Shown: positions 25,379 through 26,297 of the stretch, in pieces | Numbering within the stretch: the stretch's first letter is position 1 | Layout of the letters: every line of letters starts with the position of its first letter | Source of the DNA: Patescibacteria group bacterium | Lineage (GTDB): Bacteria; Patescibacteriota; Minisyncoccia; Phycocordibacterales; Phycocordibacteraceae | Direction: 5' to 3' | Assembly (NCBI GenBank): GCA_038064495.1 | Contig: JBBTSZ010000002.1 | Span: 16,717-80,716 of the forward strand | Length of the DNA: 64,000 nt | The notes under the pieces: model-generated | Told to the model about the DNA's origin: nothing | The model's input: only the letters and a program-made list of their open reading frames with translations | Databases searched by the model: none | Program-made: the position numbers and the translations under genes

Positions 25379-25419
25379 CTAGAAAAAGGGCGAGTCCCTG
25401 TGATATAGTTCAGCGCGAA

Positions 25420-25490
25420 GCGGATATGGTTTAGTGGTAGAACGCGTCCTTGCCAAGGACGAGGCGGGAGTCCGATTCTCCCTATCCGCA
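25420..25490 (+). tRNA. tRNA-Gly (anticodon GCC)
   Basis: Acceptor GCGGAUA/UAUCCGC, anticodon arm CGUCC-UUGCCAA-GGACG, T-arm GGGAG-UCCGAUU-CUCCC. Confidence 0.9.
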
Positions 25491-25499
25491 CTGTCGAGC

Positions 25500-25524
25500 A
25501 AAAGCACCCATGAGGGTGCTTTTG
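25500..25524 (+). terminator. hairpin + T-tract after tRNA-Gly
   Basis: GCACCCATGAGGGTGCTTTT. Confidence 0.5.
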
Positions 25525-25526
25525 CG

Positions 25527-25700
25527 TTAAGGACAGTGCGGATAGAGTACGACGTCCAACGTCGTACGTGGAGAATCGGAAGGCGGAACGGGGTACCCAT
25601 CCAACAGGATGGGTCGCGAGCCGGGGTCGCGGAATCTGCGAGTGACGACGAGCTCGTATCTGTGGCCGATAGTGTACTCACGGTCTCCCTGACATTTCTC
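25527..25700 (+). ncRNA. candidate structured RNA (~175 nt) closed by long-range helix GUGCGG...CCGCAC with >=4 internal hairpins; identity unknown
   Basis: Hairpins GUACGACG-UCCAA-CGUCGUAC, ACCCAUCC-AACA-GGAUGGGU, CGCGA-GCCGGGG-UCGCG, palindromic ACGAGCUCGU; terminal pairing GTGCGG(25527)/CCGCAC(25691); region otherwise only covered by mutually overlapping spurious ORFs. Confidence 0.3.
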
Positions 25701-25828
25701 CCGCACACCTAAAAATCCAAAAATATAGGTTTTTCAAGCCCACAACAGACATTTTCCTTTACTAAAAACAGGGGATAAAGCTGTTAACATGTGGATAAAG
25801 GACAATGGACAAAAAGAGCGATTTTGTG

Positions 25829-25860
25829 ACCTGTTCGTAAACGAATAAGTAAATACAATG
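25829..25860 (+). promoter_or_regulatory. putative sigma70-like promoter upstream of yraN-like gene
   Basis: TTGACC ...15-16 nt... TATACT. Confidence 0.3.
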
Positions 25861-25868
25861 TATTTCTC

Positions 25869-26297
25869 TTGACCTCCACTAACGTCCTCTATACTTTAGC
25901 TATGGACATCTCTGGATTCAGTCGAAAAGAGATCGGAGCACTCGGAGAAAAGGTTGCCTGTGAGTATTTAAGGCGCAATGGTATGAAAATAGTGGCAAAA
26001 AATGTTGCTCGTAAAACGGGCGAGATTGATGTAATAGGAAAAGAGCACGACACGCTGCATTTCGTTGAAGTTAAAACAATTGTCTGTGAGGTGTTTCCGT
26101 CTGAAAGAAGTACTGACGACAGCTACGACCCATCAGCGAATTTACATGAGGCCAAAATACGGCGTGTGGCGCGCACGAGTGAATGGTACGTTGCATCTAT
26201 TGATTGGGAGGGGGAATGGCAGGTGGACGGGGTCTTGGTATGGCTCCGAAAGGCCGATGGGAGGGCGCTTGTTCGGTATCTGCCGCAAATCCTATAA
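25869..26297 (+). CDS. YraN/UPF0102 family endonuclease-like protein
   Basis: GE(K)xAxxYLxxxG...EIDVIGKE...HFVEVKT pattern; true start may be Met at 25902. Confidence 0.7.
   Translation: MTSTNVLYTLAMDISGFSRKEIGALGEKVACEYLRRNGMKIVAKNVARKTGEIDVIGKEHDTLHFVEVKTIVCEVFPSERSTDDSYDPSANLHEAKIRRVARTSEWYVASIDWEGEWQVDGVLVWLRKADGRALVRYLPQIL

Follow-up and report, generated by a model that had tools for sequence, protein, structure and literature searches.

Genomic islands and prophages integrate into the T-loop sublocation of tRNA and tmRNA genes by means of tyrosine integrases (K. Williams' classification), and the direct repeat flanking the inserted DNA usually begins in the T-loop, runs to the end of the tRNA gene and variably beyond, so that the tRNA is kept intact by a replacement 3' end. 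Other systems exploit folded nucleic acids. In CTXphi-type IMEX elements, a single-stranded DNA hairpin att site is recombined at dif by the host XerC/D, whereas MITEs, REPINs and IS200/IS605-type palindrome-associated elements are small, non-coding, repeated and hairpin-rich, and are presumably mobilised in trans. Group I introns occur in tRNA anticodon loops in Patescibacteria and interrupt tmRNA genes at the T-loop (PMC13011429), in both cases colonising these genes without destroying them. Finally, tRNA-like minihelix mimics include the tRNA-like domain of tmRNA, viral tRNA-like structures and YrlA. Patescibacteria (the CPR) make up a large share of bacterial diversity, but very few of their mobile elements or non-coding RNAs are characterised. 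A literature search found no description of an element such as the one analysed here, and the published study of Patescibacteria tRNA introns concerns anticodon-loop group I introns.

We analysed a window of 64,000 nucleotides from a Patescibacteria group bacterium (GCA_038064495.1, contig JBBTSZ010000002.1, positions 16,717 to 80,716), in which the initial annotation had pointed out an unassigned, highly structured region of about 175 nt (25527-25700) behind tRNA-Gly, bounded by GTGCGG...CCGCAC. This observation is confirmed, with slightly shifted bounds: GTGCGG (25536-25541) pairs with CCGCAC (25701-25706) and encloses clean hairpins (Table 1). The + strand has a minimum free energy of -81.8 kcal/mol (z = -3.87), and 0 of 200 shuffles folded as well, whereas the - strand folds worse (z = -1.6). 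Scans with Rfam returned only the four tRNAs of the window at gathering thresholds, and only tRNAs and chance hits at E <= 10 over 25380-25900. In contrast, a covariance model built from related copies (R1) finds this element, and no other copy, in the window. The three ORFs overlapping the region are spurious: they have no credible Pfam hit, no relative keeps any of them open over its full length, and their tblastn matches are mostly translations across the tRNA gene, plus short fragments due to nucleotide similarity within the element.

The interpretation given in the initial annotation is only partly supported. It was right that this is a genuine structured non-coding element absent from Rfam and that the overlapping ORFs are spurious, but not that its size and closed helix suggest SRP, 6S or 5S-like RNA, and it is not a relative of tmRNA or RNase P RNA either. 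The closing helix is not a generic terminal stem but a mimic of the tRNA-Gly acceptor stem, formed by an antisense copy and a direct copy of the adjacent tRNA 3' end that pair with each other. The annotation had missed that the 5' part is a perfect antisense of this tRNA 3' end. The GGAA that it placed in a tetraloop lies inside helix P3.

Table 1. Features of the element and of its flanking tRNA gene (positions in the window).
Feature	Position	Strand	Description	Support
tRNA-Gly(GCC)	25420..25491	+	Target or partner gene; its 3' segment S1 (T-loop C56 to discriminator +1, 25473-25491) is copied in both orientations in the element	ARAGORN; Rfam tRNA, 69 bits; inverted repeats
Terminator	25498..25525	+	Perfect 12-bp terminator-like hairpin (GCAAAAGCACCC/GGGTGCTTTTGC); native tRNA terminator and tip of the long S1-loop-A palindrome	Inverted repeat; same kind of terminator directly after the tRNA at empty sites of related genomes
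A1	25532..25545	+	Antisense of the tRNA acceptor 3' strand, discriminator and trailer (GACAGTGCGGATAG); 5' strand of helix P1a; the element proper starts at 25536	14/14 complementary to 25482-25495; covariance model alignment
5' hairpin	25547..25567	+	Optional hairpin (9 bp, loop CCA) that splits the antisense segment	Covaries across the family (90% paired, all 8 pairs show double changes)
A2	25570..25580	+	Antisense of the T-stem 3' strand and T-loop (GGAGAATCGGA); 5' strand of helix P1b	11/11 complementary to 25471-25481; tracks this tRNA's unusual TCCGA T-loop
Core arm 1	25582..25622	+	Helix Pa (25582-84 with 25620-22), conserved purine internal loop (GGA/GA) and hairpin P2 (25588-25617, with an 8-bp stem)	Compensatory GGC:GCC <-> GCC:GGC exchange in Pa; conserved G and A loop residues
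Core arm 2	25625..25667	+	Long hairpin P3 (GGUCGCGGA.../...UCUGUGGCC) with the near-invariant G·U pair (25629·25663)	G·U in 71 of 77 copies
GA and P4	25668..25681	+	GA (equivalent to T-loop G57 A58, pairing with 25576-77), then the small P4 hairpin (GTG TACT CAC, 25672-25681)	Covariance model alignment
S2	25684..25706	+	Eroded direct copy of the tRNA 3' end (TCTCCCT...TTTCTCCCGCAC), lacking the TAT of CTATCCGC; 3' strand of P1b and P1a	Direct repeat; most other copies are exact at 14/14 or longer
Whole element	25536..25706	+	Element as delimited by the covariance model	122.5 bits, E about 1e-28

The element belongs to a family with more than 100 copies in Patescibacteria genomes and metagenomes. 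On the tRNA strand, a complete tRNA (whose 3' end is S1) is followed by a spacer (the tRNA's own terminator or a mini-hairpin), by A (a Watson-Crick antisense of the last ~22 nt of the tRNA, from T-loop to discriminator, often split by a hairpin), by a conserved three-way-junction core, and by S2 (a direct repeat of the tRNA 3' end). A pairs with S2 and closes the element, which results in a duplex copy of the acceptor and T-stem region of the tRNA. The 5' end of each copy is antisense to its own tRNA, and its 3' end is identical to it, although S2 is eroded in the window. In 77 distinct copies, 91.3% of the pair cells are paired, against 67.3% in shuffles and 35-46% in slid controls, and there are 703 double-change cells against 204. 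The excess of G·U and U·G cells (199) over A·C and C·A cells (56) indicates that the tRNA-sense strand is the one that folds. The unpaired purines of the junction are also conserved.

Almost all copies lie just downstream of, and co-oriented with, a tRNA gene of nearly any specificity or a tmRNA gene. Each of the 37 tabulated hits in 80 related genomes has a co-oriented tRNA upstream, within 130 nt in 34 cases, the three exceptions being the tandem copy of locus L075 and the two copies with cargo (loci L015 and L045). Among 81 metagenome hits, 54 lie within 150 nt of a co-oriented tRNA, covering about 16 amino-acid specificities, and one follows a tmRNA. The distribution is patchy: among related species, 15 of 69 tRNA-Gly(gcc), 8 of 52 tRNA-Gly(tcc) and 8 of 62 tRNA-Pro genes carry a copy (13-22% of the orthologous genes), and empty sites show only the tRNA and its terminator. 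The direct repeat starts at C56 (position -18) in most copies but has a variable end: it spans 16-60 nt, and reaches 56-60 nt when it includes the terminator. We found tandem arrays, truncated copies and chimeras, as well as cargo ORFs between the tRNA and the element in L015 and L045. Core variants do not cluster by tRNA type (only 7 of 30 best matches share it). In L075, near-identical spacer, hairpin and core sit behind two different tRNA-Gly genes, with A and S of each copy re-matched to its own tRNA. One could suppose that A is a copy of the tRNA's own 5' strand, i.e., the remnant of a tandem tRNA duplicate. This is rejected because in three clear cases where the T-stem has a G·U pair, A follows the complement of S, and because A also pairs with the T-loop and the discriminator.

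We then compared these traits with those of the described systems. As in elements that use the T-loop sublocation, the direct repeat usually begins in the T-loop and flanks the insert, the tRNA is preserved, tmRNA is also a target and cargo is occasionally present. However, there is no ORF inside the element and no integrase, one family uses nearly all tRNA species, the size is MITE-like, and there are an antisense copy of the target and a conserved structured core. With CTXphi-type elements it shares, by our own derivation, the integrated order of hybrid site, hairpin loop, inverted arm, body and hybrid site (S1-spacer-A-core-S2), together with a strand-specific fold whose stem imitates the duplex target, tandem copies and the lack of an encoded recombinase. 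It differs from them in its target (the T-loop and 3' end instead of dif), in its size of 150-220 nt without genes, in arms re-matched to about 20 different targets, and in an identity block of 16-60 nt. It also shares with MITEs, REPINs and IS200/IS605-type elements strand-specific folding with imperfect stems, but its inverted arms differ with every tRNA instead of being a constant transposase site, its direct repeats are long and variable instead of a fixed target-site duplication, and insertion is behind tRNA genes in one orientation. Insertion next to the conserved T-loop TTCGA would fit the preference of IS200/IS605-derived elements for sites 3' of a fixed tetra- or pentanucleotide, although these insert without duplication and, in the loci examined, which are not whole genomes, no RAYT or TnpA-like gene was seen. 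Relative to group I introns, the element has a comparable guide-like segment complementary to exon sequence, but the complementarity is a ~22-nt antisense of the 3' exon-like part, and the upstream tRNA is complete in every copy with a detected tRNA. As in tRNA-like mimics, the terminal helix reproduces the acceptor and T stems of a specific tRNA, with an identical 3' end (including CCA where it is encoded). Yet the T-loop is replaced by a paired extension plus a ~100-nt junction domain, the discriminator and position +1 are also paired, and there is no evidence of processing or charging.

The analysis thus establishes the existence of the family, its architecture and its position behind tRNA and tmRNA genes, whereas mobility, its mechanism and any recognition or catalysis by the core are inferred. 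With moderate confidence, we favour the hypothesis of a small, non-autonomous mobile or integrative element that targets the universally conserved T-loop and 3' end of tRNA genes, and that brings or regenerates a replacement 3' end, such that the tRNA is never inactivated. In this view, the folded tRNA-sense strand (RNA or single-stranded DNA) would be the substrate or guide for propagation, the A:S stem would imitate the target, and the core would be the recognition or catalytic module. The window copy would be old, since S2 is eroded and A now matches S1 better than S2, and the terminator between the tRNA and A would keep A out of the tRNA transcript. The patchy presence, the direct repeat with its mostly fixed start and variable end, tandem, chimeric and cargo-bearing copies, shuffled cores, and the re-matched copies of L075 support this view, as do a second core with the same architecture behind tRNA-Arg in relatives and the circularly closed unit S-spacer-A-core, which folds compactly with 73-78% of the bases paired. 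Against it, clustering of the ORFs within 2.5 kb of the 81 metagenome copies gave only housekeeping genes and, in 3 loci, an HTH/LAGLIDADG-like gene whose co-occurrence with the element in the 80 loci is not significant (Fisher p = 0.10). Thus, no integrase, transposase or reverse transcriptase recurs near the copies, nor was a recombinase found among the cargo. One sequence pattern found nothing in viral contigs, the four hits of another are chance matches (the covariance model has 0 hits there), and blastn gave no hits in phage or plasmid collections. Intragenomic copies are mostly old and divergent (median core identity of 0.66 within loci against 0.63 between loci), and the hypothesis does not account for how A and S2 would be rewritten for a new tRNA.

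A host-beneficial structured RNA tied to its tRNA is less likely, but remains a serious rival. It could be a mimic of the acceptor/T-arm minihelix processed by the tRNA machinery (RNase P, RNase Z, CCA-adding enzyme), possibly charged, or acting as a decoy. Alternatively, it could be a cis-acting switch in which A masks the tRNA 3' half by pairing with S1, or is neutralised by S2, with the core as sensor. The strong purifying selection on structure, the near-invariant G·U pair and the conserved unpaired purines look like those of a functional RNA, and apparently orthologous copies (the window and loci L017, L025 and L012) have kept their hairpins through compensatory changes. The covariance model even aligns weakly to tRNA-Gly itself (12 bits). 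A minimal copy in locus L121 sits inside a tight tRNA operon, with CCA included in S2, and must be co-transcribed, and in the window a read-through transcript would fold A onto S1 and destroy the tRNA fold, so both alternative pairings exist physically. Yet the patchy presence, the shuffling of cores among tRNA types, and the tandem, truncated and chimeric copies weigh against this view. So do the eroded S2 of the window, the strong terminator that separates the tRNA from the element in many copies, and the extension of the direct repeat into trailers and terminators, which is a DNA-level duplication rather than an RNA requirement.

An intron-like or ribozyme element of the T-loop is unlikely. 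In this case, S1-spacer-A-core would be an intervening sequence between tRNA position 58 and S2, removed or rearranged by RNA catalysis (self-splicing, self-cleavage or ligation), and would spread by reverse splicing into the T-loops of pre-tRNAs. The unit boundary is indeed usually at C56-A58, either S1 or S2 could complete the same tRNA, the T-loop of tmRNA is a site of group I introns, the circular unit folds compactly, and the conserved G·U lies about 5 nt from the core/S2 junction. However, Rfam models of group I introns (RF00028, the P3-P9 core), group II introns and small ribozymes (hammerhead, twister, HDV-like, hatchet, pistol) have no match at E <= 10 in the window, nor at E <= 1 in five other loci, where nothing but tRNAs was found. 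No consistent splice-site nucleotides appear at the boundaries when copies are read side by side, S1 is intact wherever a tRNA is detected, no tRNA that needs S2 was found, and Patescibacteria reportedly lack group II introns (PMC13011429), so no intron-encoded reverse transcriptase is expected. A divergent housekeeping RNA (SRP, 6S, 5S, RNase P or tmRNA) has only its size and closed helix in its favour and can be practically discarded, because a multi-copy, tRNA-linked and variably present element, with several copies per locus in some genomes, is incompatible with a single-copy essential RNA. It is also very unlikely that the element is a by-product without function, i.e., a quasi-palindrome extended from the terminator by template switching, or that an overlapping ORF is a real gene: S1-terminator-A is a near-perfect long palindrome, but the core between A and S2 is conserved and covaries across very different tRNA contexts, and the ORFs lack conservation and domains. 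A more speculative possibility, unlikely but not excluded, is a protein-free, nucleic-acid-guided mobile replicon of bacteria. The unit S-spacer-A-core would then be a circular RNA or ssDNA of 150-220 nt shaped as a branched rod, like a viroid or mini-circle, whose arm A would be a programmable guide for the 3' end of any tRNA or tmRNA. Its core would be a new catalytic or recombination-directing RNA that cuts and joins at the T-loop, copying the target end so that the tRNA survives.

The family is widespread in groundwater, soil and sediment metagenomes and is attached to the most conserved genes in the cell, but it is invisible to Rfam and to gene callers, which produce spurious ORFs over it. 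If it is mobile, it exploits the universal T-loop as a landing pad and re-templates both an antisense and a sense copy of each new target, which no described transposon, integrative element or intron is known to do. This would imply either a novel hijack of a host enzyme or RNA-guided or RNA-catalysed recombination. If it is instead a host RNA, it is a gene-specific mimic or mask of the tRNA 3' end with a sensor-like core, which would be a new layer of tRNA control. In both cases, the well-defined copies, the covariance model and the natural empty and filled sites provide a directly testable system, and are of practical value for the annotation of CPR genomes.

The model of the second core (R2) was not found outside the tRNA-Arg sites of this clade. 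A Xer-like gene, surrounded by housekeeping genes, lies about 4 kb upstream in the same genome (locus L001, 964-1881). Finally, the additional GACAG/CTGTC pairing in the window could suggest that A was copied from the pre-tRNA, but this is doubtful because GTTAAGGACA resembles the native post-terminator flank GTTGGGGACA seen at empty sites.

The observation made in the initial annotation holds: the structured segment at 25536-25706 (+) of the window begins with GTGCGG and ends with CCGCAC and contains several clean hairpins. As RNA, the + strand folds to -81.8 kcal/mol (z = -3.87, with 0 of 200 shuffles as stable), whereas the - strand gives only z = -1.6. A search of Rfam 15, which had been set beforehand as a check, returned nothing here except the four tRNAs of the window, both at gathering thresholds and at E <= 10 on positions 25380-25900. 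The three overlapping ORFs (109, 92 and 59 aa) have no credible Pfam hit, and none is kept open in any relative. Their apparent tblastn matches are mostly translations across the conserved tRNA gene, plus short fragments arising from nucleotide similarity within the element.

The initial annotation did not notice that the 5' part of the element is an exact antisense of the 3' end of the neighbouring tRNA-Gly(GCC). Two blocks are complementary, at 14/14 and 11/11 positions respectively, to the acceptor 3' strand, the discriminator and 5 trailer bases, and to the T-loop and T-stem 3' strand; they are separated by a perfect 9-bp hairpin. The 3' end of the element (TCTCCCT...TTTCTCCCGCAC) is a degraded direct copy of the same tRNA 3' end, and a perfect 12-bp terminator-like hairpin lies between the tRNA and the element. 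The helix described initially as closing the structure is thus an antisense copy and a sense copy of the tRNA end pairing with each other.

The window comes from a Hainich groundwater Patescibacteria genome (ERZ1292624, GCA_964357455.1). Eighty species-level relatives share the synteny CCA-adding enzyme, tRNA-Arg(tcg), tRNA-Gly(gcc), tRNA-Pro(tgg), tRNA-Gly(tcc); they are Paceibacterota/Kaiserbacteria-like, with 71-82% identity in the CCA-adding enzyme. A motif search followed by a covariance model (R1, 163 positions, 45 pairs) found 38 hits in these loci (individual loci are hereafter designated by L and a number). One of the 38, in L022, overlaps the tRNA-Gly(tcc) gene and was set aside. Each of the other 37 has a co-oriented tRNA upstream, and 34 of them lie within 130 nt of it, the remaining three being the second tandem copy in L075 and the two copies with putative cargo in L015 and L045. 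The tRNAs are Gly(gcc), Gly(tcc), Gly(ccc) and Pro(tgg), with weak hits behind Arg(tcg). There is exactly one copy in the window (122.5 bits).

We then scanned public metagenomes with a core-only DNA pattern, which returned at least 120 stretches, of which 80 were examined. R1 confirmed 81 hits in those, and 54 of them lie within 150 nt downstream of a co-oriented tRNA (Ser, Val, Pro, Arg, Gly, Cys, Trp, Ala, Leu, Lys, Thr, Phe, Glu, Ile, His and Met). One copy follows a tmRNA gene. Twenty hits have no co-oriented tRNA detected upstream; some of these sit at contig ends, and others appear to be solo or rearranged copies. In every well-preserved copy, the 5' segment is antisense to its own tRNA, and the 3' segment is identical to its own tRNA. 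No copy was found in viral contigs, where one pattern gave no hit and the four hits to the other are at the chance level and fail the covariance model, and none was found in the phage or plasmid collections.

On the tRNA strand, the complete tRNA, whose 3' end we call S1, is followed by a spacer, which is either the tRNA's own intrinsic terminator or a mini-hairpin with a GAACGAAGTGAG-type loop. Then come A1 (the antisense of the acceptor 3' strand plus discriminator plus position +1), an optional variable hairpin, A2 (the antisense of the T-stem 3' strand and T-loop, ending ...TCGAA), the core, ...GACCGA with an optional hairpin P4, and finally S2, the direct copy of the tRNA 3' end. A denotes the two antisense segments together. 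The core is a three-way junction. Its helix Pa has a textbook compensatory exchange (GGC:GCC <-> GCC:GGC, and also AGC:GCU), a purine internal loop (GGA/GA) leads into hairpin P2, and the long hairpin P3 (GGUCGCGGA.../...UCCGUGACC) has a bulged A and a G·U pair present in 71 of 77 copies. A recurring short motif of the type GAG-YGN(N)NGNY-GA (GAACGAAGTGAG, GAGCGACGGCGA, TGAGCAAAGCGAAT) caps otherwise unrelated hairpins and spacers, at the tip of P3 in the window and in the spacers and P3/P4 tips of many copies (e.g., L010, L039, L046, L075). It includes GCGAAGC-like sequences, which form very stable DNA mini-hairpins, and might hint at a single-stranded DNA form or a shared protein-binding loop.

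Coordinates of the element, its parts and associated features in the window and in other loci (L numbers)
Feature	Locus	Coordinates	Strand	Details
Structured element	window	25536-25706	+	GTGCGG...CCGCAC
First antisense block	window	25532-25545		14/14 complementary to 25482-25495
Second antisense block	window	25570-25580		11/11 complementary to 25471-25481
T-loop of tRNA-Gly(GCC)	window	25471-25477		TCCGATT
Tip of P3	window	25642-25654		GAGTGACGACGAG
Conserved repeated boxes	window	25771-25815		GGGGATAAAG..., GTGGATAAAGGACA
Sigma-70-like promoter	window	about 25869-25897		TTGACC-17-TATACT
R1 hit set aside	L022	2394-2530		19 bits
Element with second core	L046	4013-4162	-
Element with second core	L062	4168-4311	-
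Element with second core	L073	5675-5818	-
Element with second core	L059	5566-5714	-
Element with second core	L072	1590-1719	-
Element with second core	L075	5684-5846	-
Possible cargo gene	L015	2942-3586	-
Possible cargo gene	L045	984-1460	+
Possible cargo gene	L045	1666-2547	-
tRNA operon region with minimal copy	L121	3211-3640	+	contains a ~100-nt copy

To assess the structure, we analysed 77 distinct copies. In these, 91.3% of pair cells are canonical, against 67.3% in column shuffles and 35-46% when partners are slid by 1-3 columns; 41 of 45 pairs show double changes, and 703 cells carry a change on both sides, against 204 expected. This alignment was fitted to the model, and it therefore leans towards the structure, but RNAalifold on an independent MAFFT alignment recovered Pa, P2 and P3 with compensatory changes. 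G·U plus U·G cells outnumber A·C plus C·A cells by 199 to 56, so the tRNA-sense strand is the folding strand.

The repeats are DNA-level copies of the target. The direct repeat between the tRNA and the 3' end of the element starts at T-loop C56 (CGA...) in most copies, although in those carrying a P4 hairpin the exact repeat starts just after it, and it ends anywhere from the discriminator to 41 nt beyond. It is 56 nt long in L012 and 60 nt in L155, in both cases including the whole terminator, and where the gene encodes CCA the repeat includes it. A is the Watson-Crick complement of S, not a copy of the tRNA's own 5' strands: in three clear cases in which the tRNA T-stem has a G·U pair, A carries the complement. 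A also follows idiosyncrasies of the target, e.g., the TTCAA loop of tRNA-Pro (GGAGAATTGAA) and the unusual TCCGA T-loop of the window's tRNA-Gly. The latter, also seen in L010, L012, L017, L041 and L051, has C at position 55, where U (pseudouridine 55) is nearly universal, and the antisense arm carries the matching G (GGAGAATCGGA). S1-spacer-A forms a near-perfect long palindrome with the terminator at its tip.

The distribution and organisation of the copies bear on mobility. Among the 80 sister species, only 15 of 69 tRNA-Gly(gcc), 8 of 52 tRNA-Gly(tcc) and 8 of 62 tRNA-Pro(tgg) genes carry a copy, and empty sites show the tRNA, its terminator and the conserved boxes upstream of yraN. Tandem arrays occur in L075, L107 and L102, in L145 a run of consecutive tRNA genes each carries its own copy, and truncated derivatives and an A/S chimera (L015) also occur. 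In L015 and L045, protein genes lie between tRNA-Gly(tcc) and its A-core-S2 module, inside the direct repeats, as possible cargo; one is a C39-like cysteine peptidase and two are unknown proteins. Core variants do not group by tRNA type, since only 7 of 30 best matches share the tRNA type (e.g., a tRNA-Gly(tcc) copy is closest to a tRNA-Arg(gcg) copy). In L075, and less completely in L017, the copies behind tRNA-Gly(gcc) and tRNA-Gly(tcc) share a nearly identical core (core identity 0.86 and 0.93). In L075 the spacer and 5' hairpin are shared as well, yet A1, A2 and S2 are each matched to their own tRNA. Near-identical central cores are also combined with different spacers, 5' hairpins and P4 modules. 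Finally, an unrelated core (GACCUUGCGAGCAUUUUAUGG...AAAAUCCGCAAGGUGUACUGAAACUGUAAG) follows tRNA-Arg(tcg) in eight relatives with the same layout, i.e., mini-hairpin spacer, antisense acceptor, hairpin, antisense T arm, core, P4, then a direct copy of the tRNA 3' end. It has no Rfam match and is not present in the window.

Other results argue against a simple selfish reading. No recombinase, transposase or reverse transcriptase recurs near the copies examined, and most intragenomic copies are old, with a median core identity of 0.66 within loci against 0.63 between loci. The copies in the window, L017, L025 and L012 look orthologous, because the site, the terminator type and the hairpin position are the same, and they have kept the 5' hairpin through compensatory changes (UACGACGU/ACGUCGUA, CACGGCGU/ACGCCGUG, CACGGUGU/AUACCGUG). 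The conserved G·U pair and junction purines are typical of RNAs with a specific tertiary fold or protein partner. In addition, a minimal copy in L121 lies between tRNA-Leu and tRNA-Pro in a tightly packed four-tRNA operon (Leu/Pro/Gly/Arg), where it must be part of the polycistronic pre-tRNA; only 9 nt of the antisense arm are kept there, and the encoded CCA is included in both repeats.

We compared the element with candidate families, most of which fail at least one defining test. The Rfam RNA families show no model match. Group I introns and small ribozymes show no model match either, and no gene is interrupted. Integrase-type islands share the direct-repeat logic, but here there is no integrase, and one family serves about 20 targets. 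MITEs, REPINs and IS200/605 derivatives differ because the arms here are target-derived, the duplication is long and variable, and no partner enzyme is seen in the loci examined, although for IS200/605 derivatives insertion next to the conserved T-loop TTCGA would fit. By our own derivation, IMEX elements share the architecture, but the target and size differ. We found no description of the element in full-text literature searches, although absence from the literature searched is not proof that it is undescribed; the nearest paper treats anticodon-loop group I introns of Patescibacteria tRNAs and mentions T-loop introns in tmRNA.

The analysis establishes that the feature is real, conserved and absent from the catalogues, whereas its mobility, the mechanism and the recognition or catalytic role of the core are inferred. 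The unit S-spacer-A-core, closed on itself, is predicted to fold into a compact branched rod with 73-78% of bases paired, in which a 22-33-bp A:S stem is capped by the spacer at one end and the three-way junction at the other. By our own derivation, the integrated order S-loop-A-body-S is that of a folded single-stranded hairpin att site that recombines with a duplex target, as CTXphi does at dif. The start of the repeat in the T-loop is the classic T-loop sublocation of tRNA/tmRNA-integrating elements. Our best reading, held with moderate confidence, is therefore a tRNA-gene-targeting, protein-less and non-autonomous mobile element, whose folded strand presents a duplex imitation of the target next to a conserved recognition or catalytic module, and which would use a host or helper enzyme. 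A and S could be rewritten for a new tRNA by stepwise hopping between similar tRNAs followed by quasi-palindrome correction against S1, by heteroduplex repair during guide-target pairing, or by an RNA-level route. In the window copy, S2 has decayed while A is still perfect against S1. A read-through transcript would therefore unfold the tRNA (minimum free energy structure of 25420-25708), which the intervening terminator presumably prevents.

A host RNA that mimics or masks the tRNA 3' end remains possible, if less likely than a mobile element. An intron-like or ribozyme element is unlikely, and a functionless by-product or a known RNA family more unlikely still. The interpretation in the initial annotation is thus partly supported: its suggestion of a novel ncRNA is right in spirit, but the idea of an SRP, 6S or 5S RNA is wrong. 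The family is of interest because it is widespread, is attached to universal genes, has an architecture that matches none of the described systems we found, and is directly testable with existing metatranscriptomes and simple biochemistry.

The surroundings of these tRNA genes show two further features. In several sister species, single tRNA genes, or pairs of them, are locally inverted in the otherwise conserved Arg-Gly-Pro-Gly cluster: tRNA-Pro in L013, L024, L046, L054, L060, L075, L077 and L080, tRNA-Gly(gcc) in L026, L028 and L054, and tRNA-Arg plus tRNA-Gly in L052 and L080. This may be linked to the inverted tRNA-end copies or to the endonuclease-like genes. The conserved repeated boxes between the tRNA-Gly terminator and yraN, found in nearly all relatives (at the same position in most of L003-L082), sit upstream of a good sigma-70-like promoter and may be a regulatory site.
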